Shown here piece after piece: positions 4,647-64,000 of a stretch of 64,000 nucleotides of DNA. Where the stretch lies: the IMG/VR virus record IMGVR_UViG_3300043803_002519; one strand, given 5' to 3'. Under the pieces are notes generated by a model that was not told where the DNA came from, searched no databases, and saw nothing but the letters and a program-made list of their open reading frames with translations. Position numbers and translations under genes: made by a program. The DNA is from a virus. The number at the start of each line of letters is the position of its first letter. The first letter of the stretch is position 1.

Positions 4647-4657
<11 letters not shown>
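2279..4657 (+). CDS. putative portal protein with Ala/Glu/Pro-rich C-terminal tail
   Basis: 792 aa ORF. The call rests on position just after the terminase and on size. No diagnostic motif was read. Confidence 0.5.
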
Positions 4658-5282
<625 letters not shown>

Positions 5283-29000: not shown

Positions 29001-32000
29001 AGAAGCGCTACGGCGGCGAGCTTCTGAGTGCGAAAGTCGACGGCGAAACGCATGTATGGAACCGGCTCGCCGACGGCACCGAGATCGACCTCACCGGTTC
29101 GCAGTACGGCGGGGACGGGTTTCACCCGGTAGCGAAGAATGGAAAGGTGGTGCCACTGCGATCCACGGTGAACCCGCGGTTTGCAGCGTTTGAAGACCGC
29201 GTGGCCGCTGCGGAGCTGCGCGCTGCGCGCGACCCTCGGTTCCTCTACTCCCGCGCCCCCGGCAACCAGACCGACACGCCCGCCTTCCAGCGCTTCATCG
29301 AGGGCACCAAGGCCGTGGACGAGGACGGCGCGCCGAAGCGGCTGTACCACGGCACCACGCACGACTTCGAGGCCTTCGACGCGCAGAGTGGGAACGTCGA
29401 GAACCACCACGGCCGTGGCATCTACCTGACCTCGTCGGAAGGCGACGTCGGGTCCAACTACGCCACCCGCGAGGGGCCCGACCTCAAGAGCCGCATCGAG
29501 TCCCAGATGGAGTCCCTCCTCGACGTCTGGGACGACCCCAGCGTGGCGCAGGACTTCGTCGAGCGGTGGCTGGAGGCGCACCCTGAGCGCGCCGCCGAGG
29601 GCGAGCGGCTGGTCCAGGTGCTGGACGACGGGGGGAACCCCGACGCGAATCTCTTGCAGGAGATCACTCGGTGGGTAGCCGAGCAGGAGATTGCTGGCTC
29701 GCACGGGGGCGCAGTCCTGCCCGTCTACGCCGCCATCAAGAACCCCGTCGATTTGCGGCCCGGCAAGGTGACACGCTTCGACATCGAGACGAAGTGGTCC
29801 GAGGACGGTGAGGACTTCCTCGGCGAGACCGGGGCCGGCGTGGAGGCCATCGACGCCATCCGCCGCATGGCCAACTCCTCCGACACGGCGGACCTGATCA
29901 TCGAGGCGCTCGGGGACATCTCCGAAGGGTTCGACGCCGCTGACCTCGAGCGCGCAGTGCGGGACAACTCCATCGAGTTCCTCGACGACGACTCTTCAGC
30001 GGGGCAGTTCCTTCAGGACGTCTACCGCGAGCTGGGCTTCGACGGCATCGTCATCGACGCCTACAAGACCTTCGGCCCCCGGCGCGCAGGGTGGGGGGTA
30101 AACCTCCCCGGCATGGCGGGGCTGACCCCCGGCACGGAGCACTGGGTCGCCTTCGAGCCCACCCAGGTCAAGTCCGCCACGGGCAACCGCGGCACGTTCG
30201 ACCCGAAGGACAAGCGCCTCTTGTACAGCCGCGCGCCTGACGGCCCGACGTGGACCGCCGAGCCCCCGCCCCCGGGCGACAAGGTCCCCGGCATCGTCGA
30301 CAACCCCGCCCACGCGGCTTGGTCCAAGACGAAGCGTGACCTTGCGAAGGATGTCGCGGACCTCGAGGACGCGGAGCTATCCGCGTGGTGGGAGCACTAC
30401 GGGCCCTCTCCGGACGCGCCGACGGTCGCGCCCAGGCCGAAGAACTTCGCCGAGGCTCAGGCCTACTGGACCGAGCACGGCGACGACCCGGCGGAGTTCC
30501 CCGAGCCCTCCCCCGAGCTCTCTGCGAAGCTGCAGGCCCTCGACGATGCCAACGCCGCGCCCGAGCCCTCGCGCACCACCGCAGGCTTGGTGAACGACCC
30601 GGCCCGCGTCATCGTCCGCTACTTCAAGACCGCCAACATGCAGGCCCTGCTCGAGCAGAACGCTCAGGTCATCCGCATGCTGCTCGGGGAGAAGTGGGCG
30701 GGCGACCTCATGCGCTTCTTCGACCACGAGGTCGACACAGCCTCCGGCCAGGTGCGCCTCACGAAGAAGGGCGAGGAGCAGTTCAACGTGGCCCTCGCCC
30801 GCGTCCTGCGCGGCGACCTCGCGCCCCGCGGCCGGGTGCGGGCGTACTTCGAAGAGCTCCGCGATGCGCTGAGCGACATCTGGCTGAACCTCCGCGGCAA
30901 GCCCATGTCGCTGCCCCCCGGCTTCCGCCAGTGGTGGGACGCCACCCTCGACCCGGCCAAGCACCTCCGCGCCCGGGTGAAGGTCTCCGACGAACGCTTC
31001 GGGCGCCAGCCGCTCGAGGTCAACGTCACCGTGAAGGCGAACGACCCCGACGCTCCCCCGCCGCCGGACCCCACGCGCCTCGGGCGGGAGCTCGCCGACG
31101 TCACGGACGTCATCTACCGAGAGGACTTCAAGCGCGCCAACGCTCTGCACGAGTACTGGAACCTGCCCCTGACGCCCGGGCAGAAGCGCCACGCCCTCGG
31201 CATCCTGGGCAGCGACACCGACGTGGATGCTGTCGAGGCCGTGGCCAAGGCCATCGCGCTCCTCGGCACGACGCAGGCCCGCCGCCGCTGGGGCTTCTCC
31301 GGCAAGGTGGTGCGGGTGGGTCGGCGCAGCCAGGTCTCCGAAGACCGCAAGGAGAGCGTGCTGAAGCGCGCCCGCGAGGCCTTGCACGGGGCCATCGGCG
31401 GCGACGTGGTGGCCGCTCCCGACGGCGGGGTGACCCTCACCCCCGAGCAGGCCAAGGGCCTCGCCGCACACCTCGACCACCTCGTGGACGCCGGGTGGGG
31501 CGAGCAGCTGCCGGACGAGTTGATCAGTCCGCAGAAGGACCTCACCAAGCTGACCGAGCAGGAGTGGTCGGACATCGCCAACACCACGGTCGACGACGTG
31601 GCGGGCCCTGGCAGCTACCGCGACCGCCAGGCCGACCGGGTCGTGGGCAACGCCGCGGAGAGCCTCCTCGGCCGCGCGGTCGACGCACTGTCCACCGTGC
31701 CCATCTTCAACGGCGTGCGCCGGAAGCTGACCGAGGCCTTCGACACGACCTTCGCCGGCAGCAAGAACATCAACCCCGCCGTGGCCGAGGTGGTGGACGG
31801 GTGGCGTCGCGAGTTCAGCGACGTGGCATCCCAGATTGCCCGCCTTCGTGAGCATGTTCGCGCGGGCACTGCAGACGAGACGGCCGAAGTCCTGATTCGG
31901 AAGATTGCCAAGGAACTGCCCGCCGTGGGCCCCGACCCCAAGGTGGTCGACGACCTGGTGGTGCTGAACCGCGCCCTCAACCCTGAGGGGGACGTCACGC

Positions 32001-45178: not shown

Positions 45179-45567
45179 TCAGTCCACCCGCCCCTGCCGG
45201 AGATATCGGAGCACCAGCCGCCGCTGTCGAGCGTCAGGTGGGGGAGAGGCAACTCTTGCTGCGCGGGGGCCATGGGGTCGCGCGCTTCGCGAAGGCCGCC
45301 ATCCCCCCAAATCTCCCACACCCGCCAGCCGGGGAGCCAGCGTTGGTATGGGTCGGCGTGGTCAATCCAAGGCTCCCCGCTCGCGGAATCAGAGATGCAG
45401 ATGAGGGTCCTGCCCTCGGCCCAGGGGAGCACTGCTGGGTGCGGGTCGGCGGCGGCCAGCTGCTCTCGCGTGACCACGCTGCCGTACTCGGCCTCCAGAG
45501 CGTACCACTTTCCGACGTCGAGTACCTCCTTGCGCTCGAGGTCCACGAGGTAGTAGTCGACGCCCAC
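45175..45567 (-). CDS. hypothetical protein
   Basis: The GTG start overlaps the polymerase stop (TAGTG). 130 aa. The upstream part of track ORF 45175-46056 is antisense noise inside the polymerase gene. Confidence 0.45.
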   Translation of the reverse strand: MGVDYYLVDLERKEVLDVGKWYALEAEYGSVVTREQLAAADPHPAVLPWAEGRTLICISDSASGEPWIDHADPYQRWLPGWRVWEIWGDGGLREARDPMAPAQQELPLPHLTLDSGGWCSDISGRGGWTE

Positions 45568-47462
45568 TACCCCTCCGTCGGAGGTTTGGGGGTCCACACC
45601 TGCAGGCGGCCGTTCTCGTCGACCACCCGCTCGGCGCTCTTCGACCAGCGGTCGGAGGCCTCGGTCTCTACGCGGACGGCGACGTCCGGCATGTAGTACC
45701 GCATGCACTCGACCATGATCTCCTCGAGGCGGACCGCGGCCTCGTGCACCCGGGCGATGGGTGCGGACAGGAGCACCTCGTCGTGCACGAAGGCGTGGAC
45801 CAGGCACCCGTACAGCGGGCTCGGCGCTTCGCCGGGAAGGGGCGGCAGGAAGCACTCCCGCACGATGGCGCGCAGGGCCCGCTTCGCGCCGTCGGCGGCG
45901 AGGCCTTGGAAGAGGCTGTTGCACGCCGCGGTGTAGCGGCACCCGCCCCGCACACGCCCGGAGCGCAGCTGCGTCAGGTCGAAGGTCTCGCCGGTGCCCG
46001 CCAGCTGGGAGATGTAGGCGAAGTAGTCCTTCATCTCCGGGTAAGCGTCGAACCACACCTGCTTCAGCTCGGCGACGAAGTCCCGGTCGAGGACGAGCCC
46101 ATACCCGAGGGCGAACTCCACGAAGGCGTCGGGGCCCATGCCGCCGGGGAAGCCGAAGTTCAAACTTTTCGATAGCTGGCGTTTTTCCTTTGCTTCGGGG
46201 TCTTTGGTCGTGTAACGGGCGAGGGCCTCCTCGTAGGGGATGCCCATGATCTGAGCCGCCGTCACGAGGTGCAAGTCCTTGCCCTCGTTGATGGCGTCCG
46301 CCATCGCCGAGTGGCCGAAGAGGTCAAGACAGACCTGGGCGAGCGCGACGAGCTCCACGGTGGAGTAGTCCGAGTCCACGAAGGCATACCCTTCCGGCGG
46401 CCGGTACAACTCTCGGATACCCCCCTTCCGGGGCATCTGCTGGATGTTGGGGTTGAAGCTGCTCGTGCGCCCGGTCTCCTTCAGCACGTCGTAGCTGGGG
46501 TTCACGATGCCCTGCTTCAGCATCGGGATGAACGCCGACAGCAGCTTCTCCGCGCTGGCGGCTTCTCCAATGGCGACGAGCAGGTCGTCACCAGAGGCGA
46601 GAAGGGTGTCGCCGGCGGTGGACGTCGCGCCCTTCTCCGTGACGGGCAGGGGCACGCCCCGCGCAGCGTAGGCGCGCTCCACGCGAGCCTTCAGCACCTT
46701 CATGTCCTTGGAGCCGTTGGCCCGCAGGATGCCCGCTTGCCGCATCTTGGCGTGCACGTCGGCCACGCTGGCTTGGAGCTCGGCCTCCAGCTTGGCGACC
46801 CCATCGAGGTCGACCTCGAGGCCGGACATGGAGATGAGATGCAGCGCCCACGCGGCGTCCGTCTGGGGAAGCTCGTCCACGAGGGTCTCGGTGCCCTGTG
46901 CGAGGAACACGTCGAGGGTGGTGATGGCGTCCGTCAGGGCGTAGGCCATCGCGTCCTGAGGGTACTTGTGGATGGGTACGCCGTCGAGCTCGGAGTACCG
47001 CAGGCGCCAGGTGTCCCCGCCCTTGTCCATGGGGGTGTTGAGGTAGCGCTCGCTGAGCGCCCCCAGCGAGAAGCTGGGCATCTTGTTGGTGATGGCGTCG
47101 AAGCTCAGCCGGCCCTGGGCCAGCATGAACAGCTTGTCGCGGACCTGTACGTCTCGGATGCGCTCGTTGTCGTAGGCCGCGAACACCAGCCGCATCATGC
47201 GGTCGGGCTCGGGCGCCCAGGTGACGGCGAGGCCGAGGTCATAGGCGACGTTGGCGCCGACGAGGATCACGTCGGTGTCCTCCAGCCAGCCGTAGAGGCG
47301 CTCCCACCCGTCGTCCACGGCGACAAGGTCGACCTCGCCTCCTTCGGCGAAGGACATGCACACCGGCTTGGGTGCGAGGATGCCGGGCTCGATGAGGTAC
47401 GACTCGAAGTCGAACGCCACGTAGCGTGGCGAAGGGGAGGGCATGGGGGTCTCCAGAGACAA
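45567..47462 (-). CDS. family A DNA polymerase with 3'-5' exonuclease domain
   Basis: Exo I AFDFESY and Exo II ANVAYDL. Pol motif A DSDYSTVELVALA, motif B RQLSKSLNFGFPGGMG, motif C VHDEVLL. Confidence 0.9.
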   Translation of the reverse strand: MSLETPMPSPSPRYVAFDFESYLIEPGILAPKPVCMSFAEGGEVDLVAVDDGWERLYGWLEDTDVILVGANVAYDLGLAVTWAPEPDRMMRLVFAAYDNERIRDVQVRDKLFMLAQGRLSFDAITNKMPSFSLGALSERYLNTPMDKGGDTWRLRYSELDGVPIHKYPQDAMAYALTDAITTLDVFLAQGTETLVDELPQTDAAWALHLISMSGLEVDLDGVAKLEAELQASVADVHAKMRQAGILRANGSKDMKVLKARVERAYAARGVPLPVTEKGATSTAGDTLLASGDDLLVAIGEAASAEKLLSAFIPMLKQGIVNPSYDVLKETGRTSSFNPNIQQMPRKGGIRELYRPPEGYAFVDSDYSTVELVALAQVCLDLFGHSAMADAINEGKDLHLVTAAQIMGIPYEEALARYTTKDPEAKEKRQLSKSLNFGFPGGMGPDAFVEFALGYGLVLDRDFVAELKQVWFDAYPEMKDYFAYISQLAGTGETFDLTQLRSGRVRGGCRYTAACNSLFQGLAADGAKRALRAIVRECFLPPLPGEAPSPLYGCLVHAFVHDEVLLSAPIARVHEAAVRLEEIMVECMRYYMPDVAVRVETEASDRWSKSAERVVDENGRLQVWTPKPPTEG

Positions 47463-47518
47463 GTACGGCCCGACCCCCGCGTGAGCGCAGGCCGGGCCGC
47501 CTTGGTGAGGGGTGGGGG

Positions 47519-47953
47519 CTACTCGGTGACCGCGTAGAAGTTGTGCTTGCTGAAGTCGCCGCCGGCCTTGGTCTTGGTCGGCTCGACCACGATGCGGAGC
47601 GCCGAGCCTGCGAGCGCGGTCCCGTCTCCCTCGAGGGCCTCCTCGATGGTCCCCTCGTCCACGTCGTCCTCGTCAGCGTTGGTGGCCGCCATGATGAACG
47701 CCTTGATGTCGGCGAGCGCCATGTCGGGGTACTTCCCGTTGAGCTTGGTCATCCACGTCGCCGCCGTGCCCGCGGGCAGGTCGGGGTTGGTGGACTCCTG
47801 GATGTCGAAGTCGACGACGAAGAACTGGTCGCTGCCGACCTTGCTCTCGACGTGGCGGACGCTGACGACGCTGACGTCGTAGCGACCCTTCGTGAAGAAC
47901 TGACCCTTGGGGCGCGCGGCCCCGACCTTGCCGATTTTGCTGAAGATGCCCAT
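47519..47953 (-). CDS. hypothetical protein
   Basis: 144 aa. Downstream of a sigma70-like promoter and a long leader. Confidence 0.5.
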   Translation of the reverse strand: MGIFSKIGKVGAARPKGQFFTKGRYDVSVVSVRHVESKVGSDQFFVVDFDIQESTNPDLPAGTAATWMTKLNGKYPDMALADIKAFIMAATNADEDDVDEGTIEEALEGDGTALAGSALRIVVEPTKTKAGGDFSKHNFYAVTE

Positions 47954-49638: not shown

Positions 49639-52353
49639 TCAGGTCTCCGAGGACTGCGAGTAGAACGATGCCAGCAGCAGCTTCTGCTGCTGGCCGGTGG
49701 ACTGTTGAACGTAGGCCGCGTCGTCGCGCGCGGCGGTGAGGTAGGACAGGGCGATGCCGTCCCAGAAGGGCACCTCGACGAGGACGTCGTCCGCGTCCTG
49801 ACCTTCCCTATGCGTGCGCCCGATGCAGTTGCCGACGACAGCGACCTTGCCGTTTCTCCGAGTGATGATTGCTCCGGACGCCACTTCAGCGCACCACACC
49901 CGCTCGGTATCCTGAGAGGGCACTACGCCCCAGGTCGGGCGGCTCAGCCACCTCTTGCAGGACGCCGACCGAGAGGTCACGTCTTCTGAGTAGTGCAAGA
50001 ACCACATCTTCTTGTGGACCGACACGTTGCATCGAATCCCCCGGCGAACGCACAAGGACTGAAGCTGGTCCGCCACGCCCTTCCTGCTGGAGCAGATCGT
50101 GGCCGTGTGCGGAGTGTACCGGTCACCGGTATAGGCGCCATTCGTTTTGTTACCGTCCCCGGCCCACATTCCGTGAAGTAGCACGAGAAGTTGCCTGCGC
50201 GTCAACTGCGTCAGGGTGTCGGGGAGGTCCTTGTTCAAGAACGGCTGGAGCACTCGCCACCCGCGGCACTCCGCGCCATCCTGTCCCCCCAGGTCTCGGA
50301 ACCTGCGGTCCCCGGGAATCTTGCTGTTACCGGAAACTGTCCACTTGTGAAGGGCGAACCGACGCTTTCCGAAGTTCGTCGGCGTAGTCACGAGGACGTG
50401 GCGGAATCGGAAGTTGCAAGCGCGCAGGGTGTCCTCGCAGAGGCGGACTATCTCTGGGTATCGGTCAGACTGAAACAAGCTGATCGTTCCGTTGGTCATG
50501 TTCCCGTCTGTCATGAACAGCCCAATGAACGTCAGTTCTGCATCGGTCAACGGAGCCTCCTCGCCCGGCTGTTCCCCCGCCACAGGAATCCGGAACGCTG
50601 GGGGCATCTCGGACGCCTGCACGAAGCTCCGCGGGCCGTACACGAGGCCGTCTCGCCCCGCAGGGCCGAGGCGCTTCGCGCGCTGGCACACCATTCGGTG
50701 GCCCGCCGTTACGCGAATGTCCAGGTGTGGATTGCTCAGTCCGAACATCTCCTCCTTGCCGAGAAGCCGCTCCACCCTCTTCCCGAAGGACCAGGTGACT
50801 GTGCCGTCTTCCACGGAATATGCCGCCACGTCCTCCCCCGCGGGCCACGGGTCGTCGATCCCTACCCAGCCGAGTCGCGTGAGGATTTCGGTCTTCTCAT
50901 CCAAGCACTGTTCCCACACCTTCCCCGACGACGAGACCTCGGGGACCAGGTTGGTGTTCCAGGCCTGCAGGTTCCGCCCGGTGCCGAAGCTCGAGCGGGA
51001 CAGCGCCACGGTGCGGGGCTTCTTGGGCACGGGCGCGCCGGGGCGGAGGACCGCCATGCCGCACTCCTCCAGCGCGTCGAGCAGGGCGATGGACTCGCAC
51101 CACACCAGCACCGGGCCGCGCTCGCGCTCGAGCCGGTCGACGCAGTCGAGCAGGTCGTCGACGAAGGCGTAGGACAGCCACGTCGTCTTGACCGGCGGCG
51201 GGCGTTGGTACTGCTCGTCCCACCTGCCGAGGGCCATGCTGTCGACGGAGGTCCCTTGCCCGGCGCGCACGCGCTGCTCAACCTGCAGGGGGCTGTCGAC
51301 GCCGGGTAGGCGTCGGGCGAGGGTGTTGCGGACGACGCGGGCCCAGCCCGCGCGGGCCTCCAGCCACTGCTGGTCGGGTCCTTTCGGGCCCCAGTCCCAG
51401 GTGTAGTAGAAGCCGGTCTGGAGCTGGCGCATGGCCGCGGCCTGCTCGCTGGCCCGGAGCAACTCCGTTCCGTCGGGGAGCTCCCAGCGGGTGCGGAGGA
51501 CCTTCATGGCCTCGACGAGGGCCTCGGGCTTGTTGAGGCGGCGGGTCCGCAGGATGATGCTGCACTCCGCCGCGGAGGTGTCGACGGTGCAGATGACGCC
51601 CGGCGCGGAGCGCAGGCGGGCGTAGTAGCTGGCCCGGGGAGTGTTCTCCGGGGTGGGGTAGGCGTCGACGAGGGGCTGCACCGCCGCGCGCTGGTGGTCG
51701 GTGGGCGGGGCCTCGGGGCGCGCGTCGATGCACGCCGCCCAGGCCTGCACCTCCACCCAGTCTCGGGGGAGGGGGCTGCGCTCGCGCAGGGCGAGCTCGG
51801 CGATGTGGTCGTAGTCGAGCAGGCTGCGGTTGGACATCGTCCCGCTGAGCGCCACGAGGCGCGTGTCGGGGTGCTCCTGGAACCACTGGATGAAGCGCCG
51901 CGTGCGCGCCGACTCCCGCCGGGCGAGGCAGTGGACCTCGTCCGCGACGATGAGGTCGGGCGCATGGGCCGTGAGCATCGCCTGCTTCTTGGCGCTGGAG
52001 AGGTCGTCGTAGCTCATCACGAGCAGGTTCTCGTGGATGCGGAAGTGGTCCCTCCACCGGTTCACTTCGGCCTTGGTCTGCGCGAGGAGCGAGGAGGGCA
52101 CCAGCAGCAGCGGGCGGTAGGTGTTGGGGACGACCGACGGCGCGAGCACGGAGATGAGGAACTTCCCCTGCCCGACACCGATGACGCCCAGCAGCCCGTC
52201 GCTGCGCTGGGCCTCCCCGAGCGCGGCGAGCTGGACCTGCCTCAGAGCGTGGGGGGTGCCCGGCACGAGCAGGTCCTCCGCGTGAGCGGGGGGCAGACGG
52301 TCCGCCGCATCGAGGCGGGGCAGCGACAGGATGCGGCGGACCTCAGGGAGCAT
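49639..52353 (-). CDS. SF2 DEAH-box helicase (SNF2/Res-like) interrupted by an intein
   Basis: Motif I GVGQGKF, motif II IVADEVH, motif III LSGT. Motif VI is split as WEQ | intein | CIGRTHREGQ. Confidence 0.8.
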   Translation of the reverse strand: MLPEVRRILSLPRLDAADRLPPAHAEDLLVPGTPHALRQVQLAALGEAQRSDGLLGVIGVGQGKFLISVLAPSVVPNTYRPLLLVPSSLLAQTKAEVNRWRDHFRIHENLLVMSYDDLSSAKKQAMLTAHAPDLIVADEVHCLARRESARTRRFIQWFQEHPDTRLVALSGTMSNRSLLDYDHIAELALRERSPLPRDWVEVQAWAACIDARPEAPPTDHQRAAVQPLVDAYPTPENTPRASYYARLRSAPGVICTVDTSAAECSIILRTRRLNKPEALVEAMKVLRTRWELPDGTELLRASEQAAAMRQLQTGFYYTWDWGPKGPDQQWLEARAGWARVVRNTLARRLPGVDSPLQVEQRVRAGQGTSVDSMALGRWDEQYQRPPPVKTTWLSYAFVDDLLDCVDRLERERGPVLVWCESIALLDALEECGMAVLRPGAPVPKKPRTVALSRSSFGTGRNLQAWNTNLVPEVSSSGKVWEQCLDEKTEILTRLGWVGIDDPWPAGEDVAAYSVEDGTVTWSFGKRVERLLGKEEMFGLSNPHLDIRVTAGHRMVCQRAKRLGPAGRDGLVYGPRSFVQASEMPPAFRIPVAGEQPGEEAPLTDAELTFIGLFMTDGNMTNGTISLFQSDRYPEIVRLCEDTLRACNFRFRHVLVTTPTNFGKRRFALHKWTVSGNSKIPGDRRFRDLGGQDGAECRGWRVLQPFLNKDLPDTLTQLTRRQLLVLLHGMWAGDGNKTNGAYTGDRYTPHTATICSSRKGVADQLQSLCVRRGIRCNVSVHKKMWFLHYSEDVTSRSASCKRWLSRPTWGVVPSQDTERVWCAEVASGAIITRRNGKVAVVGNCIGRTHREGQDADDVLVEVPFWDGIALSYLTAARDDAAYVQQSTGQQQKLLLASFYSQSSET
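49828..50907 (-). mobile_element. intein with LAGLIDADG homing-endonuclease core (360 aa, helicase residues 483-842)
   Basis: N-terminal CLDEKTEILT. Block B TAGH. LAGLIDADG-type LTFIGLFMTDGN and LLVLLHGMWAGDGN. C-terminal VAVVGN followed by Cys +1. GC is visibly lower than in the flanks. Confidence 0.75.
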
Positions 52354-52359
52354 GGCGGC

Positions 52360-54300
52360 TTAGCGCGTCCCGCGCAGGACGAACGCCGCGGTGGGGACGA
52401 GGGCCTGGGAGACCTCCTTCCACACGCCGTTCATGGAGTCGACCAGAAGCAGCGTGCCGTCCGCGGGCAGCGCGAGGCTGGCCATGTACGCCACCGTGCG
52501 CTCGCCGGCGCGGAAGTCCCGGAGGAACGCCGGGCCGCCGGTGGACTTCTCGTAGCTGGCGATGATGGGGGCGAGGTAGGCCTCCATGGTCTGCACCGTC
52601 CACCCCTGCGGTGCGACGACGATGCCCACGTCGACGAGGAGGGCGAAGCCATTCTGTACGGAGGATGCGGGCAGCGTGGGGGTCTCGGTGGGGGTCTCGG
52701 TGGGGGTGGCCTTGACCACCTCGACGGGCTCGGCCCGCGCCACCACGTCGAGTGCGACCGCTTGGGCCACCTCCTCCGTGGGCGTGGTCGGGCCGACGAG
52801 CGACAGGTCGAGGCCCTTGAGCGTCAGGGCACCGGGCCACGCCGCGCAGGCGCGCTCGACGTGGGACCACGCCACGCGCTGCAGGTCGAGGGCCGAGCCC
52901 ACGATGGCGCGCAGATCCTTCGAGGAGATGGTGGTCTTGCCGTCGGCGAGCTCGCGCTCGATGGCCGCTTCGGCCACGGGGTAGTCGAAGCCTTGGTGCG
53001 CCACGGCGCGGGGGCCGGGGGGCGCGGTGGTGGCCCGCTCGGCGACGATGGGGGTGCCGGCCTGTTCTGCGATGGCCTTGGCCTGCGCCAGCGCGGTGGC
53101 CATGGCCTCGGCGGTGGTCTGGGCCTCGGCGCGCCGGGCCTCCTCCTCTTCCTTGGCCTTCGCCTTCTCGGCGGCCGCGCGCTCGATAGCGCGCTGGGCC
53201 TCGACGACCTCCACGGCGGCGGAGTCCCAGCCCTCCAGCCACGCGGTGTCCTTGGCCGAGCCCTCCTTGTACGGGGACTCGCGCCCCTCCTCGGCGGCGT
53301 AGGCCGTGCGCCCATCGAGGCGGAAAGCGACCTCGTCGACCGTGGGGGCGGCCTTGACCGTGGGGGTCTCGACCTGTGCGGCCTCGTCGACCGCGGCGAT
53401 TGCCGCCGCGAGGGCAGGGGCACCCGTCGGGATGCTGGAGGGGGTCGGGGGGGTGCCTTCGGCCTTGGCGAGGGCGGCCTTCTCGGCCCGGGCGCGGATG
53501 AGGTCTTGGAGCTTGGACATGGGGGTTTCTCCTGAGGCAGTGGGAATGGTGGAGGCCTTGATACGGCCGATGTTGGCGAAGGGGGACGAGGGGTTGGCCT
53601 GGCCGCGCTGGCAGTGCGACAGGTACGGGCACCCGCCGAAGGCACTGCAGGCCTGGACGACGGCGGGGACCTTCGTCACCTCGAGGGTGGCCCACTCTGC
53701 CATGCGGTGGCTCAGGGGGACGATGGTCTCCGACCACACCTTGCGGGTGTGCCGGGTGTCGAGGACCGCGGAGACCTCGGCGGTCTGGGCGGTGGCCTTG
53801 TGGACCTGAAGGTGGGCCACCGACACAGCGTTGGGCTTGTAGGTGTTGAGCGCCCACACCGCGTAGGGCACCATCTGCAGGTCCGTGCGGAGCTCCTCCT
53901 CCGTCTTCGCCCACTTCCAGTCCCCGACCGTCTTGAAGTCGACGATGCCCAGGGTGTGGGGCAGAGCGGTCAGGTCGACAAGGTCGATGAAGCCCAACAG
54001 GGGGACGGCGAGGCCGGTGTCCGTCGGGGACAGCTTGACCTCCTGCTCCGAGATGAGCCGACCGTTGCCGTGGCTGCGCGGGGGGTAGTGCCTGGTGAGG
54101 GCCGACGCACGGAGGTCGATGGGGGTCGTGCCGTGCTTGAGGTAGTCCTCCACCTGCTTGTGGATGGCGCTGCCCTCAATCAGGGCGCGGGTTGGCTCGG
54201 GCTTCGGCAGGTCCGACAGCTTCTCAAACCACCACTTGCGGGGGCAGAGCGCCGCCGTCTTGAGCTGGCTGGCGCTGGTGCGGTCATGGGTCTTGGGCAC
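52360..54300 (-). CDS. Cas4/RecB-like PD-(D/E)XK nuclease fused in frame to a ~386-aa C-terminal region
   Basis: SASQLKTAALCPRKWWF, IEGSAIHKQVE, GFIDLVD, IVDFKT and CSAFGGCPYLSHC. GTG start in a TAGTG overlap. An internal GGAGAA-N6-ATG lies at 53520 in the same frame. Confidence 0.65.
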   Translation of the reverse strand: MPKTHDRTSASQLKTAALCPRKWWFEKLSDLPKPEPTRALIEGSAIHKQVEDYLKHGTTPIDLRASALTRHYPPRSHGNGRLISEQEVKLSPTDTGLAVPLLGFIDLVDLTALPHTLGIVDFKTVGDWKWAKTEEELRTDLQMVPYAVWALNTYKPNAVSVAHLQVHKATAQTAEVSAVLDTRHTRKVWSETIVPLSHRMAEWATLEVTKVPAVVQACSAFGGCPYLSHCQRGQANPSSPFANIGRIKASTIPTASGETPMSKLQDLIRARAEKAALAKAEGTPPTPSSIPTGAPALAAAIAAVDEAAQVETPTVKAAPTVDEVAFRLDGRTAYAAEEGRESPYKEGSAKDTAWLEGWDSAAVEVVEAQRAIERAAAEKAKAKEEEEARRAEAQTTAEAMATALAQAKAIAEQAGTPIVAERATTAPPGPRAVAHQGFDYPVAEAAIERELADGKTTISSKDLRAIVGSALDLQRVAWSHVERACAAWPGALTLKGLDLSLVGPTTPTEEVAQAVALDVVARAEPVEVVKATPTETPTETPTLPASSVQNGFALLVDVGIVVAPQGWTVQTMEAYLAPIIASYEKSTGGPAFLRDFRAGERTVAYMASLALPADGTLLLVDSMNGVWKEVSQALVPTAAFVLRGTR

Positions 54301-54719
54301 TAGGTCGCCTTGGCGGGGGTGGTGTGGGGGGTGGCGGGGGTGGTCGCGGGGAACAGCGGCACCTGTGCGCCGGGGCCCTCGGTCGGGGGGTCGACGAGGG
54401 GGTCGGGGGCCTGGGCCGCTGCGGGCGGCGACAGGCGCTCGAAGGCGTGCTGCAAGGCGACGCCGGGGCAGAGTGCAGAGTGGCTGATGATGCTGCCGTT
54501 CTGGTCGACGACCACCCACTTGCCGCCGAAGTGCTCGACGTTCGCGGCGTCGTCGTTGGTGGCGATGCGGAAGAGGTCGAGCAGGTGGCCGACCGTGCCC
54601 GGGTCGTTGAGGTCCGGCTCGGTGTTGGGATCAGCCGGACGGCGGTTGTCCTGGAGGTGCAGGCCGCCGCCGGCGTACCGCATGCCCGCGCGCCAGCGGA
54701 AGTGAGGGTTCTGAGTCAT
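54300..54719 (-). CDS. hypothetical protein
   Basis: MTQNPHFRW start with a GAGGAG RBS. 139 aa. Confidence 0.5.
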   Translation of the reverse strand: MTQNPHFRWRAGMRYAGGGLHLQDNRRPADPNTEPDLNDPGTVGHLLDLFRIATNDDAANVEHFGGKWVVVDQNGSIISHSALCPGVALQHAFERLSPPAAAQAPDPLVDPPTEGPGAQVPLFPATTPATPHTTPAKAT

Positions 54720-54827: not shown

Positions 54828-57419
54828 TTAGTGAGCGGGGGCGTCTGGGGCTGGGCGCGCGGTGGCTTGGGCGACGTGCACGCCGAGGGTCTGCGGCACC
54901 TCGTAGAGGGCGGGCCAGTTCCGGGCCCCGCCGCCGGCGCGCTCCTGCTTGTGGCCCTTCGACACCATGCGCTGCGTGAGGCGGCGCTGGGAGGGGACGA
55001 AGCGCTCGCCGTTGCGCTCGCACCACGACTTGAACAGGGTGTAGAGGCGCTCGTTGGTGATGGGCTTCGACGCCGAGGTGGGCGGGGTGTCGGTGATGCG
55101 GTCGTCGAGGAACTGCGCCACCACGTCGCCGGCGAGGCGGACCTCGGCGGCCGCGTCCTGCATCGCCTGCGGGATGGCGAGCCCTTGGCGGCGGTAGGCG
55201 TCGAAGCCGTCGACCAGCCAGCGGATGATGCCAGGCCCCTCGGCCCGCAGGGTGTCGCGCAGGGACAGGTCAGGGTTGTCGCGGAAGCTGCGGTTGAAGG
55301 GGATGAGGACGAAGCGACGCCGCATCGCCGGGTCGGAGACGTCAATCTCGTAGCCGGGGTTGGCCGAGAAGAAGAGCGTGAACTGCCCCTTGTACTCGAA
55401 GAAGTTCTCCCTCATCAGCCGCGCGCGGATGGGGTCCTCACCCGTGCAGGTCTTCAGGATGGCGGAGTCCATGCGGCGGTTCTGCGGGAGCTCCTCGGGG
55501 AAGACGAAGCGACGCCCCGCCCACGAGGCCAGGTCGACCGGGACCGCCGGGTCGCCGTGGCGCTCGATGAAGGTCTCCGCCTTCGCCGAGGTCGTGTACT
55601 CCGGGCCGAGGGCGTCGGAGATGGCGCGCTGCAGGACACCTTTGCCGTTGCCGCCGTCGCCCTGCATGAAGAACATCTTCTGCTCGCGGCAGTACCCCGA
55701 CATGGCGTAGCCCAGGGCGCGCTGGAGGAAGGCCGCGTGCTCGGCGTTGCCGTCCATCACCTCGAGGATGAAGCGCTCGAAGCGAGGGCACCGGGCCTTG
55801 GGGTCGTAGGGCGGCATTGACGGCGGCGTCGCCCGGGTGAGGTAGTCCTCGCGCCGCGGCGCGCGGGGGACGATGGGGACGGCGGGGTCGAGGGGCAGGT
55901 GGAGGGTCTGGCCACCCGTGTTGATGACGCCGGGCAGCTGGTCGAAGACCTCGGCCGAGCCGCCTACCTCGGGGAAGCCGCCCATGCGCGCTACGTCCAC
56001 CATCTCCCGGAGGCCCGAGGCGCTGGCCGCGTGGCGGTAGTTGGCCATGCGCTGCTTCAGGGGGGTCAGCGACATGGCGTTGGACACCTCGACACGGTGC
56101 ACGTCGGCTACGCGGTGGGCCAGGTGGAAGACGTCGTTGGCCACGGTGGGGGACAGGTGCCAGTGTCCGCGGGTGGGGGACCACGTCGCCCACTCCTTCC
56201 TCTCCAGTGCCCAGCGGTAGTTGCCCTGCATCAAGGCGACGAGGGACCGGGCGTTCTCGATGCCCGTGCCGTCGGACTGCGGCGCGGCGGGGGGCGGGGG
56301 GTCTTCGTCCTGGACGAGGGACCGGGCGTTCTCGATGCCCGTGCCGTCGGACTGCGGCGCGGCGGGGGGCGGGGGGTCTTCGTCCTGGACGAGGGGCGGG
56401 GGCGCGTCGGCGGTGCGGGCGAGGGCCCGGGCTACCGCGGCGTGGGGGGCGGCGGGCTCGCTGGGGCCGGTCGGGGTGCTCGAGGAGGCCTCGTCCCACC
56501 AGGTGATGTCGCACTTCGAACAGTGCAGGTATCGCTGGTGCACGGTCTCGAAGCGGCCGTTGGCGCCGAGACGGCGGACGGGCTTGGCGGAGACGAAGGC
56601 CGATGGGTGCTGGTCAGGGTGCTCGGGGTTGATGCACCGGGTTTTTTGCTTGGCGCCGGGCTCGGGGTGCAGGTCGACGAGCTCGGGATAGTCGACGAAG
56701 CGGACGTCCACGGTGCGGGCCGGGGAGGTGGCCGCGGCGACGGCCTGCTGGGTGGCAGGGTCGGCGCGGAGCCGAGCCTCGGCCCACTGGGACATGGCGT
56801 CGAGGGTGTGGGTCGGCCCGTTGAAGTAGGCGATGGTCTGGTGTCGGCCCTCGTGGAGGCCGCCGGGAAGGCGCATGCGGCGGGAGGGGTCGGTCAGGCG
56901 ACGGTCGGCGTCGGGGCCGAGGGCGACGGCGAGGGCCGTCTGGGTGGCGCGCCACCGGGTGAGGTCGTGGGCGTTGCGGGGGTCGACGGGGGGGTCAACC
57001 TGCCAATAGGCGTGCACCGACTTCCCCGGGGCGGCGTGGCGAGGGTCACCCGACAGGACCAGCATGGTGGGGTGAGGGATGCGGCCTCGGTCGACGAGGG
57101 TGGCGATGTGGCGGAGCTGCTCGTCGACACGGGCGGCGCACCAGAGGGGGTCTTGTTTCTGCTCGAGCGTGCCCTCGGGGTCGACCTCGGCGAAGCAGAA
57201 GGGCATGGCCACGACGTGGGCGGACGCGGCGCCCTCGCCCGTAGGACCGAAGGAGTGGTCGGCGAGGAATCGGGCCGGCGTCCAGTAGTGACCGCGGGCG
57301 CCGGGGATGTGGCCGTGCCAGTGCGACTGGTCCGGGGGCGGGGTGTAGTCGAGGTCCTCGTCCGTGAAGTCGCCGAAGTCGGGCGCTTCGTGCAGGCCGA
57401 CGGGGAGAGGGAGGGGCAT
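54828..57419 (-). CDS. bifunctional primase (AEP/prim-pol-like) and SF3 (D5/P4-type) helicase
   Basis: LVLSGDPRHAAPGKSVHAYWQV. Zinc-binding CINPEH...CSKC. Walker A GDGGNGKGV, Walker B FVFPEE, motif C FFSAN. The Met at 57419 was chosen over the track start at 57623. Confidence 0.8.
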   Translation of the reverse strand: MPLPLPVGLHEAPDFGDFTDEDLDYTPPPDQSHWHGHIPGARGHYWTPARFLADHSFGPTGEGAASAHVVAMPFCFAEVDPEGTLEQKQDPLWCAARVDEQLRHIATLVDRGRIPHPTMLVLSGDPRHAAPGKSVHAYWQVDPPVDPRNAHDLTRWRATQTALAVALGPDADRRLTDPSRRMRLPGGLHEGRHQTIAYFNGPTHTLDAMSQWAEARLRADPATQQAVAAATSPARTVDVRFVDYPELVDLHPEPGAKQKTRCINPEHPDQHPSAFVSAKPVRRLGANGRFETVHQRYLHCSKCDITWWDEASSSTPTGPSEPAAPHAAVARALARTADAPPPLVQDEDPPPPAAPQSDGTGIENARSLVQDEDPPPPAAPQSDGTGIENARSLVALMQGNYRWALERKEWATWSPTRGHWHLSPTVANDVFHLAHRVADVHRVEVSNAMSLTPLKQRMANYRHAASASGLREMVDVARMGGFPEVGGSAEVFDQLPGVINTGGQTLHLPLDPAVPIVPRAPRREDYLTRATPPSMPPYDPKARCPRFERFILEVMDGNAEHAAFLQRALGYAMSGYCREQKMFFMQGDGGNGKGVLQRAISDALGPEYTTSAKAETFIERHGDPAVPVDLASWAGRRFVFPEELPQNRRMDSAILKTCTGEDPIRARLMRENFFEYKGQFTLFFSANPGYEIDVSDPAMRRRFVLIPFNRSFRDNPDLSLRDTLRAEGPGIIRWLVDGFDAYRRQGLAIPQAMQDAAAEVRLAGDVVAQFLDDRITDTPPTSASKPITNERLYTLFKSWCERNGERFVPSQRRLTQRMVSKGHKQERAGGGARNWPALYEVPQTLGVHVAQATARPAPDAPAH
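56238..56387. repeat. perfect 75-bp tandem duplication inside the primase linker
   Basis: The unit gacgagggaccgggcgttctcgatgcccgtgccgtcggactgcggcgcggcggggggcggggggtcttcgtcctg occurs twice, and the next 8 nt start a third copy. It encodes LVQDEDPPPPAAPQSDGTGIENARS x2. Confidence 0.95.
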
Positions 57420-57641
57420 GGGGACCTCGAGCGGCGGGGACAGGGCGCCGGGCCCCCCACCACCTGCAATGGCGGAGGGCCGGCGGGGGCCACCGTTGGC
57501 CCCTGAACCTGTAGTGAGCAGGGTGTGCGCGGGGGTTGCAGGCCCCGAGGAGAGGAACCTACCACACATTCGCGTGGCGTGGGAGTGGCGTGGGGGTGAG
57601 GGTGGAGAAATAAGTGCCCCCACCCAGGCCCCCGACCCGTC

Positions 57642-57723
57642 GCCTATTTAGCGGGTGTGCCCAGCCTCGGATAGGAGGGCTCGCATTTAGGCGAGGGCGA
57701 CGGGGCCGGGCGCCTAAATAGGC
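57642..57723. promoter_or_regulatory. left cluster of GCCTA-NN-TAGGC boxes (3 sites)
   Basis: GCCTATTTAGCG at 57642-57653. Degenerate CGCATTTAGGCG near 57682-57693. Perfect GCCTAAATAGGC at 57712-57723. Confidence 0.55.
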
Positions 57724-57834
57724 GCTGCGTAAGCCTCGGGGGTGGCATCGGAGAGGGTGTCGCGGGGCCCGCCGGCAGGCCGAAACACCCACACTGGGGG
57801 GTGGTGGGCACGTCGTCGTGACAAGAAGTGCGTG

Positions 57835-58140
57835 GAAATAGGGAAAACGACAGTTTGGCGGCCGATTGTGCACTTGTTGGGTGGGGTGTTGCACTTCCTT
57901 TTAGGGCTTTCTGTAGTTTGGAGGCCGTTTGTGCACTTGTTACGCTTCTTTCGGGGTATGAACGCGCATACGAGAGTGATTGACATGTCAAGTGTAACCC
58001 TCATGTAGTACATCACATGTGAGGTGTATACGGCCGTGTCATACCCCCAAAGAAGCGTAACAAGTGAACAGTTGGCCTCAAACCTACCGAAAGCCCTATA
58101 CCGAAGTGCAACACGAAGTGACACACCCTATTTGGCTGTT
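57835..58140. repeat. AT-richer ~300-bp imperfect palindrome (candidate origin or operator region)
   Basis: 57934-57961 is complementary to 58039-58066 at 27 of 28 positions. The outer arms are related with indels. There are three (G/T)TGCACTT-like 8-mers per arm. The 12-bp perfect palindrome TTGACATGTCAA lies near the centre at 57980-57991. Confidence 0.7.
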
Positions 58141-58156
58141 CGGCGGGGGCGGCCGC

Positions 58157-58263
58157 GCCTATTTAGGCCTCCGGGATGAAGGCGTCCCCGCTTATTTAGG
58201 CGGCCCTCGATAGCGCCTATTTAGGCCACGGGGTGAGGGCGTCTGGGCATCGCCTAAATAGGC
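58157..58263. promoter_or_regulatory. right cluster of GCCTA-NN-TAGGC boxes (4 sites)
   Basis: GCCTATTTAGGC at 58157-58168. GCTTATTTAGGC at 58190-58201. GCCTATTTAGGC at 58215-58226. GCCTAAATAGGC at 58252-58263. Confidence 0.6.
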
Positions 58264-58298
58264 AAGGTGCGGAGTGTTGCAGACCCTGCTACGAGGTG

Positions 58299-58328
58299 TT
58301 GACGGCCACCCCGGCGGCGGAGTAGGCT
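58299..58328 (+). promoter_or_regulatory. candidate promoter giving a leaderless mRNA
   Basis: TTGACG-N18-TAGGCT, with the -10 ending 6 nt before the ATG at 58335. Confidence 0.4.
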
Positions 58329-58334
58329 GTCGAC

Positions 58335-58931
58335 ATGCCCCGAGTGCTGAACAGGCGAGCCACGTTGGACGACCGAGCCAAGCTCGAGACCATTGTTCGT
58401 GAGCAGGGCTGGTCGATTGCCACGATGAACCGCGCGGCGGCGGAGATTGGTCTCCACCCGCGCACGATCCGACGCATCTGGAACAGCACCGTGCGCTACG
58501 TCGCCGGCGGCGAGTCCGTTGGCGACTGGGTACGGAACAAGCGGGACGAGCAGCTGGCTCGGCTCGAGTATATAAGCGCCAAGGCGACGGCCGCGGGCGA
58601 TTTCTCCGCCGCCGCGAAGGTCGAGATGGTCTACGCCCAGGTGGCGGGGACCTTGTCGCCCACGAAAATCCTGCACTCGGGCGCCGTTTCGGTCACGCAC
58701 AGCGCCGCGGTGGCCGCGGTGTCGAAGATGAGCCACGACGAGCTCCGCCTGGCGGTCTACCAAGGCAACGAGCAGCCCCTGGAGGTGCTCGAGGCGGCCT
58801 TTGAGGCCGTTGGGGAGGCCAAGGAGGCCTCGGAGGTGCTCCCGGCGGCCCCTGAGGTGCCCCCGGCGGTGGCCAGGGCCCTCGCGAGGCTCAGCGCGGG
58901 TCGGGGAGGGTCCGGATCAAGCGCCGGATGA
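58335..58931 (+). CDS. HTH DNA-binding protein (candidate binder of the adjacent boxes)
   Basis: GWSIATMNRAAAEIGLHPRTIRRIW is HTH-like, followed by a helical region. 198 aa. The only plus-strand gene in this area. Confidence 0.5.
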   Translation: MPRVLNRRATLDDRAKLETIVREQGWSIATMNRAAAEIGLHPRTIRRIWNSTVRYVAGGESVGDWVRNKRDEQLARLEYISAKATAAGDFSAAAKVEMVYAQVAGTLSPTKILHSGAVSVTHSAAVAAVSKMSHDELRLAVYQGNEQPLEVLEAAFEAVGEAKEASEVLPAAPEVPPAVARALARLSAGRGGSGSSAG

Positions 58932-63560: not shown

Positions 63561-63760
63561 CGTAAGGCCTGGGTTAGGGTTCGGGGGCTACGTTGCCGCC
63601 CCACATTCATCTATTATCCGAGCGTTATACGCTCGGCCAGCTAAATCGGCGCCGTTTAGTCAAGGGAATGTCAAGAGCCGCGGACAAGCGCGGCAACTCG
63701 CGGCGGACACCCGGGTACGCCACGAAGGCCGCTGATCCGGACAATCTTGGCCGATCCCAC

Positions 63761-63861
63761 CGGACACCGGTGTCCGTTCAAACGCTCGAGCATGCCGGAC
63801 GGGCCGGTCCGGAGCAGGTGGACCCCGGTGTCCGCTCACCCGCTCGAGCATGCCGGACGGG
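63761..63861. repeat. 16-bp perfect palindrome plus two 37-bp direct repeats
   Basis: Palindrome CGGACACCGGTGTCCG at 63761-63776. CCGGTGTCCGNTCANNCGCTCGAGCATGCCGGACGGG at 63767-63803 and 63825-63861. Confidence 0.85.
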
Positions 63862-64000
63862 CGACCGCGCCACGACGGGCGACCGCGCCACGACGGGCGA
63901 CCGCGCCACGACGGGCGACCGCGCCACGACGGGCGACCGCGCCACGACGGGCGACCGCGCCACGACGGGCGACCGCGCCACGACGGGCGACCGCGCCACG
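63856..64000. repeat. 18-bp tandem array GACGGGCGACCGCGCCAC, at least 8 perfect copies, truncated by the window end
   Basis: Counted directly. No spacers between units. Confidence 0.95.

Follow-up and report, generated by a model that had tools for sequence, protein, structure and literature searches.

A candidate bidirectional iteron origin of replication in a 229-bp imperfect palindrome beside the primase-helicase gene of an uncultured high-GC phage

The spacer beside the primase-helicase gene

The intergenic spacer studied here belongs to the IMG/VR virus record IMGVR_UViG_3300043803_002519, of which a stretch of 64,000 nucleotides (the window) was analyzed. The window is phage-like, with a guanine-plus-cytosine (GC) content of 69.5%, and represents ~64 kb of an uncultured phage genome of ~70 kb, as given by coordinate arithmetic and a near-identical contig of 70,339 bp; the metagenome contigs L001 and L011 are near-identical to it. 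On one side of the spacer lies a leftward replication operon with the gene for a primase-helicase, on the other side lies a gene for a protein of a helix-turn-helix (HTH) family, and between them sits a large imperfect palindrome, which is probably the core of an origin of replication. The genes to the right of 58931 were called on the minus strand in L001 and L011, so the HTH-family gene is a lone rightward gene. An earlier note on this DNA had named both neighbors correctly: one is a D5-like primase/helicase, and the relatives of the other have matches to HTH Pfam families. The primase ATG is most likely at 57419 and not at 57623, since homologs of 838 and 828 amino acids (aa) and the gene calls agree on it, and the non-coding spacer therefore extends from 57420 to 58334, ~915 bp. 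The palindrome begins ~470 bp upstream of this ATG, within the same spacer. The features of the locus are listed below.

54828 to 57419, minus strand: primase-helicase, 863 aa, with an N-terminus like PrimPol of the archaeo-eukaryotic primases (AEP), D5_N, DUF5906 (superfamily 3, SF3, ATPase) and a Pox_D5 C-terminal region
57556 to 57564, minus strand: putative extended −10-like element of the primase operon, TGGTAGGTT, picked out by eye
57642 to 57723: left cluster of 12-bp sites, at 57642-57653 (two mismatches), 57684-57693 (half-site CATTTAGGCG) and 57712-57723 (perfect, within GCGCCTAAATAGGCGC)
57864 to 57878, plus strand: left outer iteron GATTGTGCACTTGTT, core TGCACTT at 57869-57875
57886 to 58114: core imperfect palindrome, 229 bp, proposed origin core, from inverted-repeat search, alignment and fold z-scores
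57886 to 57898, plus strand: left middle iteron GTGTTGCACTTCC, core at 57890-57896, mirror of 58102-58114
57927 to 57941, plus strand: left inner iteron GTTTGTGCACTTGTT, core at 57932-57938
57945 to 57961, plus strand: inner box CTTCTTTCGGGGTATGA
57962 to 58038: center, 77 bp, 48% GC in a 69.5% GC genome, proposed DNA-unwinding element
57980 to 57991: 12-bp palindrome TTGACATGTCAA in the center, midpoint 57985.5
57998 to 58024: small sub-palindrome CCCTCATGT...ACATGTGAGG in the center
58039 to 58055, minus strand: mirror copy of the inner box, TCATACCCCCAAAGAAG
58059 to 58071, minus strand: right inner iteron AACAAGTGAACAG, core AAGTGA at 58062-58067, mirror of 57927-57941 with one change
58102 to 58126, minus strand: right middle and outer iterons CGAAGTGCAACAC and CGAAGTGACACAC, cores at 58104 and 58116
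58127 to 58263: right cluster of 12-bp sites, at 58127-58136 (weak, CCTATTTGGC), 58157-58168, 58190-58201 (one mismatch), 58215-58226 and 58252-58263
58299 to 58328, plus strand: putative promoter-like element of the HTH-family gene, TTGACG-18 nt-TAGGCT, picked out by eye
58335 to 58931, plus strand: HTH-family protein, 198 aa, with long helices after an N-terminal HTH

Of all inverted repeats in the window, the longest has the arms 57886-57961 and 58039-58114, which are 76 nt each, show 86% complementarity without gaps and enclose 77 nt. The imperfect palindrome described in the earlier note is thus real and its count of 27 matches in 28 positions for 57934-57961 against the reverse complement of 58039-58066 is exact, but the inverted repeat is larger than claimed and the 76-nt arms hold none of the proposed indels. 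Local alignment of the region with its own reverse complement gave a score of 167, against 22.9 ± 4.1 and a maximum of 39 for 200 mononucleotide shuffles. The single-strand fold z-score was −10.7 as DNA and −12.5 and −13.1 as RNA of either strand, and the RNA fold energies of the two strands of the palindrome were −126 and −125 kcal/mol. Nine of the 12 arm mismatches in the window are non-wobble, and there is no G:U-type strand bias, which argues for symmetry at the DNA level rather than an RNA-specific one. The symmetry axis falls at ~58000, inside the 77-bp non-palindromic center. The TTGACA-containing palindrome TTGACATGTCAA, the sole perfect one, had been taken as the central core and had motivated the idea of a promoter; its midpoint lies 14.5 bp off the axis, and neither L002 nor L003, the relatives described below, has it.

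The region is indeed the least GC-rich stretch of the window, with GC contents of 0.45, 0.475 and 0.49 at scales of 100, 200 and 300 bp, compared to 0.49, 0.545 and 0.573 in the lowest stretch elsewhere. Third-codon-position GC is 0.38 to 0.65 in the open reading frames (ORFs) over the region and 0.86 to 0.94 in the flanking genes, and a six-frame comparison with L002 gave similarity in all six frames, only at the left edge of the spacer. From these two patterns the region is non-coding, in agreement with the earlier statement that no convincing ORF covers it, and a hidden small gene was rejected as a candidate on the same grounds. The GC-skew profile proposed as a check was uninformative: cumulative skew rises throughout 45-64 kb and appears to track gene orientation, and a local flip in sign merely mirrors the palindrome's own symmetry.

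Three 8-mer-like repeats in each arm had been seen earlier, and these are the cores of the iterons. The three left cores, TGCACTT, start at 57869, 57890 and 57932 with spacings of 21 and 42 bp, equal to two and four helical turns, and the three right cores, AAGTG(C/A), start at 58062, 58104 and 58116 with spacings of 42 and 12 bp. The perfect cores within both arms all face the center, and most spacings are near multiples of 10.5 bp. The left outer iteron belongs to a 27-nt direct repeat, 57852-57878 and 57915-57941, with 93% identity. Within the arms, the inner box CTTCTTTCGGGGTATGA is the part best conserved when the window, L002 and L003 are compared; the more distant locus L005 has a similar GGACACTTCTTTCGAGG.

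Flanking the palindrome is a further group of sites that the earlier note had overlooked. All six matches in the window to the 12-bp palindrome GCCTAWWTAGGC, at up to two mismatches, are inside this spacer; there are six to eight copies, two or three on the left and four or five on the right. The confinement of these palindromes to this spacer, flanking the proposed origin, is new here. A cognate motif of 11 bp, CGCTAWTAGCG, whose half-sites are closer together by one base, occupies the corresponding flanking positions in L002 and L003. The GCCTAWWTAGGC copies are presumably a second, putative class of sites, for a dimeric regulator, and may be operators, which is compatible with an origin.

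The promoter-like element of the HTH-family gene stops 6 nt before the ATG at 58335, giving a leaderless or near-leaderless arrangement, and L002 and L003 have TTGCTG-17 nt-TACACT at the same place. At the aligned place of the −10-like element of the primase operon, TGCTATGGT is found in L002 and TGCTACTCT in L003. From this element down to the ATG at 57419 there is a primase leader of ~130 nt with conserved hairpins, which may act as a regulatory or stabilizing 5′ untranslated region; within it, at 57420-57550 in minus sense, GC-rich hairpins differ by compensatory changes between the window and L002/L003 (CGGGG..CCCCG vs CAGGGG..CCCCTG). The suggestion of a divergent promoter/operator region is borne out to the extent that the spacer separates divergent transcription units, but the promoter-like elements lie outside the palindrome and a strict sigma-70 scan of 57300-58600 found no site.

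Neighboring proteins and related loci

The primase-helicase matches the Pfam families D5_N, DUF5906 and Pox_D5 (E 3e-5) and the DNA primase PHROG (E 2e-82). In a PDB sequence search its best solved homolog was PriRep5 of SaPI5, a Staphylococcus aureus pathogenicity island (SaPI) (7OLA, E 4e-8), and its N-terminus matched weakly to 6ZP9, which is AEP/PrimPol-like. The nearest primases of cultured phages are ~30% identical. Judged by sequence, the protein is a candidate self-loading initiator-helicase. Between the window and L002, residues 785-835 of its C-terminal region hardly vary, though the iteron flanks differ. A perfect 75-bp tandem duplication (2.1 copies, L011 16956-17113) lies in the proline-rich linker encoded within 54828-57419 and likely explains why the primase has 863 aa in the window but 838 aa, 25 fewer, in L001 (P0001).

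An exhaustive HMMER search with the 198-aa HTH-family protein recovered 27 relatives, mostly of ~160 aa. Many of them match HTH Pfam families of regulator type, 12 of the 27 match phrog_645, labeled "Rnase E", and one matches a small-terminase PHROG (E 0.004). The presence of an HTH domain and the constant position beside iteron regions suggest that the label of phrog_645 is misleading. The protein of the window itself had no Pfam or PHROG match at default E-value cutoffs, with insignificant matches alone at a cutoff of 10, and no significant PDB sequence match; tblastn against phage records returned nothing for it or for its relative P0011. The AlphaFold model had a mean predicted local distance difference test score of 76.7, and the single-sequence model was poor. 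A PDB fold search with the model found nothing below E 0.9, and in BFVD the best fold matches were mycobacteriophage "DNA binding protein" entries, with "terminase small subunit" entries also matched at E 1e-3 to 4e-2 and TM-scores of 0.22-0.27. The HTH-family gene is the most constant neighbor of the iteron region and lies immediately beside an iteron/AT-rich region in seven lineages; a D5-like primase gene is next door in four of these seven, and a terminase gene is nearby in none. The recognition helix differs between the window and L002. The protein is a candidate origin-binding or regulatory partner.

No nucleotide match to the spacer or to 45-64 kb was found among 50,697 phage records, a single-sequence search of IMG/VR found no close relative of the primase or of the HTH-family protein, and among the contigs of GTDB representative genomes a scan detected no primase relative and thus no prophage copy. 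Two related loci, L002 and L003, were recovered via the primase, with 64% protein identity in L002 and 76% over the matched segment in L003. Both have a spacer of 760-780 bp between the primase gene and an ortholog of the 198-aa gene (41-43% identical), and both spacers hold a palindrome, with scores of 197 in L002 and 100 in L003 against ~21 ± 4 for shuffles. The palindrome sequence is largely different from that of the window and the iteron is GACACTTC; the inner box is kept. The iterons are arranged as 3+3 in L002, with spacings of 20/43 and 43/21, and as 4+3 in L003, with spacings of 20/11/32 and 43/20. In L003 the iterons are intact but the sequences that separate them have diverged from one arm to the other, a pattern indicative of selection on protein-binding sites; in L002 and the window these intervening sequences are still symmetrical.

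Opposed iteron sets around an AT-rich center were also found in five more distant loci (L004, L005, L009, L013 and L014). L005-L007 carry GGACAC(TT) and L009 carries GGACAC, beside primases with D5_N/DUF5906, where the sets lie 3′ of the primase gene and upstream of HTH-family genes. In L013 the motif is GTGACAG and the center has 33% GC, and in L014 the motif is GTGTAAC and the center has 30% GC; both layouts are upstream of HTH-family genes. L004, an IMG/VR record with a distant D5-like primase, has GGGGCAC and GTGCCCC sets around an AT-rich center immediately 3′ of the gene; in the next ORF no HTH-family pattern was apparent in the part read by eye, with no search or alignment made. In an unbiased 6-mer count with the two orientations kept apart, the iteron motifs were among those most enriched in the spacers of the relatives, and in the window itself fragments of the 12-mer ranked highest. 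At positions 1-2450 of L005-L007, a DEAD/ResIII helicase gene with Hint/intein Pfam matches lies beside the D5-like primase gene, which suggests a replication helicase interrupted by an intein.

An origin weighed against other roles

The region is probably the phage's bidirectional iteron origin of replication. This reading is drawn from the combination of opposed, phased iterons, a meltable center and a neighboring gene that joins a primase to an SF3 helicase, which is the layout of SaPI origins. It was one of three interpretations offered in the earlier note, and it is the best supported of them, by comparative anatomy and by the published architecture of SaPI origins; the promoter stands in part and the telomere falls.

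In the proposed mechanism, the iterons would be bound along one face of the helix by an initiator, most likely the primase-helicase acting through its C-terminal region, as SaPI Rep and PriRep proteins act through a winged-helix domain; the co-conserved HTH protein may assist it or serve instead. One hexamer would assemble on each arm, and the center between the hexamers, 57962-58038, would melt. Because the arms are palindromic, both displaced strands would show the same sequence from 5′ to 3′, so that symmetric helicase loading and priming by the AEP primase would be possible, with two forks departing in opposite directions. The GCCTAWWTAGGC arrays would bind a second, probably dimeric, protein, either the HTH protein next door or a small regulator from a nearby gene, and its role would be the coupling or insulation of the origin and the two promoters that face outward.

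In SaPI origins, which adjoin the rep gene, 6-12 iterons are divided equally between the two flanks of an AT-rich region, in opposite orientation; the iterons are read by the winged-helix C-terminal domain of self-loading Reps of SF3 or superfamily 6 (SF6), which probably load one hexamer per side (PMC9371898). The locus resembles the origins of SaPI1, SaPIbov1 and SaPI5 in its two opposed sets of short iterons, which are 5-8 bp in this type of origin, flanking an AT-rich region, within the same total of 6-12, and in adjoining the gene of an initiator-helicase in which, as in PriRep5, an SF3 helicase is fused to a primase. It differs in position, being upstream of the primase gene and divergent from it, whereas the SaPI origin is immediately 3′ of its gene, a placement shared by L004, L005 and L009. 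It also differs in that the palindrome made by its arms is extended, reaching 229 bp and taking in the spacers between iterons, and in having the inner box CTTCTTTCGGGGTATGA, a co-conserved HTH-family gene and flanking arrays of 12-bp sites. In a phage genome of ~70% GC, "AT-rich" means 48% GC, and binding by a winged helix is putative.

Phage P4 provides an origin architecture for a self-loading SF3 primase-helicase, in which the origin consists of two separated elements, ori and crr, rather than one palindrome. The P4 alpha protein consists of a primase, an SF3 helicase and a C-terminal winged-helix origin-binding domain (PMC2777425). The protein of the window likewise has primase, SF3 helicase and C-terminal region in one polypeptide, and P4 likewise has an origin of short, repeated, octamer-like iterons; the primase domain of P4 is of DnaG type, whereas the N-terminus in the window is AEP/PrimPol-like. 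In simian virus 40 (SV40) and other polyomaviruses, with large T, and in papillomaviruses, with E1, two SF3 hexamers are guided to an AT-rich origin by a palindromic array of short sites for the initiator, and in papillomaviruses 12-bp palindromic sites for the dimeric auxiliary protein E2 flank the helicase sites; the locus would function in a like manner. The DNA-binding domains and sites of these viruses have no homology to those considered here, and the likeness of the 12-bp arrays to E2 sites is an analogy only. In plasmid RSF1010 the iterons are direct repeats bound by a separate protein, RepC, and the helicase RepA is not a D5-like SF3 helicase. RSF1010 oriV combines iterons, an AT-rich segment and the inverted priming sites ssiA and ssiB, which give each strand an equivalent start specific for the primase RepB′ (PMC8567376). 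By analogy, this may provide a rationale for symmetry of the whole arms, beyond the iterons.

Several findings weigh against an origin here. In the right arm of the window the iterons are degenerate, with AAGTGAACA and AAGTGACA in place of AAGTGCACA. As a bare 9-mer with one mismatch allowed, TGTGCACTT is not enriched across the window, so the case for iterons rests on clustering, orientation and conservation. GC skew gave no signal, and the position upstream of and divergent from the primase gene departs from the SaPI arrangement. The evidence for a winged helix in the C-terminus of the primase is limited to the Pox_D5 match, and the primase had no PDB sequence match to the P4 alpha domain with the winged-helix structure. 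A tandem array of 18 bp in 8-9 copies, in the spacer at ~63561-64137, could be an alternative iteron origin; no testable conserved link between this array, near 63.9 kb, and replication genes was found. The weak resemblance of the predicted HTH fold to small terminase subunits keeps a packaging site under consideration.

A purely transcriptional role is unlikely. The iterons and 12-bp palindromes would then be operators of the divergent promoters of the primase operon and the HTH-family gene, in an early or immunity-type switch with no part in replication. The two divergent transcription units on either side of the spacer would suit such a switch, as would the lone, rightward HTH-family gene, a position found for many repressor genes, the regulator-type HTH Pfam matches among its relatives and the confinement of the GCCTAWWTAGGC sites to the spacer, upstream of each promoter-like element. 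However, the conserved promoter-like elements at 57556-57564 and 58299-58328 are outside the palindrome and none was found inside, and a palindrome of 229 bp, containing six phased iterons and with its center at the GC minimum, far exceeds the needs of an operator. In addition, L004, L005 and L009 have the structure downstream of the primase gene, not between divergent promoters, and the layout fits SaPI origins that were defined experimentally.

Among accounts that retain replication, the locus is most likely built like the known origins of related self-loading primase-helicases and is a clean example of them, not a new kind of element. It is rather unlikely that it represents a two-component variant not yet described. 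In such a variant the uncharacterized family with an HTH plus long helices would be a dedicated partner for origin recognition or helicase recruitment, always encoded beside an opposed-iteron origin in high-GC phages; the 229-bp palindrome would act by way of hairpins, extruded or on displaced strands, and so offer the AEP primase-helicase the same loading and priming sites on both strands, and the 12-bp arrays would form an auxiliary or insulating layer like that of papillomavirus E2.

A pac or cos packaging site, with the HTH-family protein as a small terminase subunit that binds repeats on either side of a central cleavage region, is improbable. Such an arrangement exists in phage SPP1, where repeats bound by the small terminase flank the central cleavage region in pacL-pacC-pacR. 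The size and layout of the protein, an N-terminal HTH with long helices, would fit, repeats resembling binding sites lie directly upstream of the gene that encodes it, and the "terminase small subunit" matches in BFVD and the single small-terminase PHROG match among the 27 family members lean the same way. Against these stand the low TM-scores of the BFVD matches and the better matches to mycobacteriophage "DNA binding protein" entries. The gene for the large terminase (727 aa) is ~11 kb away, beyond a block of genes on the opposite strand, and has its own 199-aa ORF immediately upstream. The HTH-family genes of the seven lineages lie away from terminase genes and four of them adjoin a D5-like primase gene. 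The same DNA layout occurs beside the primase gene of L004, where the next ORF, in the stretch read by eye as described above, showed no sign of an HTH-family gene, and four independent assemblies read straight through the site.

It is very improbable that the palindrome is transcribed as a long structured RNA, such as a hairpin small RNA, an antisense regulator or a processing signal. The hairpin would be very stable on either strand, as the RNA z-scores show, but any DNA palindrome yields such a fold, the arm mismatches are mostly non-wobble and free of strand bias, and the promoter-like elements point away from the palindrome. Conservation is concentrated in the phased iterons, not in base pairs, as seen in L003, and no Rfam family was found at the gathering threshold in the whole window, in which ARAGORN also found no transfer RNA and no transfer-messenger RNA.

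A protelomerase site of the telRL type has a perfect or near-perfect palindrome right at the dyad axis, where the DNA is cut and rejoined. A telomere-resolution site for a protelomerase, in the style of linear plasmid-prophages, or a recombination site like a phage attachment site (attP) is hardly credible in spite of the large dyad symmetry with nested inverted repeats, given that the center of symmetry is a 77-bp non-palindromic segment, that the sole perfect palindrome is off the axis and absent from L002 and L003, and that no Pfam or PHROG match to a protelomerase, integrase or partition protein was found in the ORFs scanned, which did not include every small ORF; ~6 kb of the genome lies beyond the window.

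Genome context and implications

Elsewhere in the window, the genes assigned include those of virion proteins, lysis and the replication operon.

2 to 1360: large-terminase fragment; genes for virion proteins are also in the window
20048 to 34762, plus strand: polyvalent-type protein, a single ORF of 4,904 aa
within the window: endolysin-type peptidase
45567 to 47672, minus strand: family-A DNA polymerase, replication operon
49639 to 52353, minus strand: helicase-like protein, replication operon
52360 to 54519, minus strand: PD-(D/E)XK nuclease, replication operon

The 4,904-aa ORF has Pfam domains of C5 cytosine DNA methylase (2614-2915), ART-PolyVal, YunG and HATPase, together with a stretch, residues 671-1019, that weakly matches a PHROG named "virion RNA polymerase", and probably encodes an injected "polyvalent" protein. 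This weak stretch and the ability of the 12-bp sites to form stems of 5-7 bp had prompted the idea of N4-like hairpin promoters for a virion RNA polymerase, which was dropped because Pfam shows a polyvalent protein without a polymerase domain.

Outside the window, at 4066-4665 on the minus strand of L011, the 199-aa ORF directly upstream of the 727-aa large terminase gene had no PHROG match and occupies the classical position of a small terminase gene; a gene for a 125-aa XRE-type repressor-like protein lies just upstream of it (L011 4803-5180). A second large divergent spacer, at ~63561-64137, covers 63561-64000 of the window and continues in L011 (9215-10000, minus-strand read). It contains the perfect 18-bp tandem array of GACGGGCGACCGCGCCAC, with 8.1-8.8 copies at 100% identity from 63856 to 64000 and beyond, which could be a regulatory array or the alternative iteron origin mentioned above. 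The array is preceded by two direct repeats of ~50 bp, each with CCGGTGTCCG, in one case as the palindrome CCGGACACCGGTGTCCG, and by an AT-richer patch.

Origins of uncultured high-GC phages have almost never been mapped, and the locus gives a testable prediction of one, with clearly separated parts: iterons, inner box, unwinding center and flanking sites. The natural variants L002, L003, L004, L005, L009, L013 and L014 change the sequence of the iterons and keep the geometry. The prediction could supply a pair of origin and initiator for vectors in GC-rich hosts, and it gives a search rule for phage origins in metagenomes, namely opposed k-mer sets around a GC minimum beside a D5-like primase gene. 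The HTH family would gain a tentative functional context, and the "Rnase E" label of its PHROG may need to be re-examined. Current understanding is not overturned; the origin model of SaPIs and P4 would be extended to a new group of phages.

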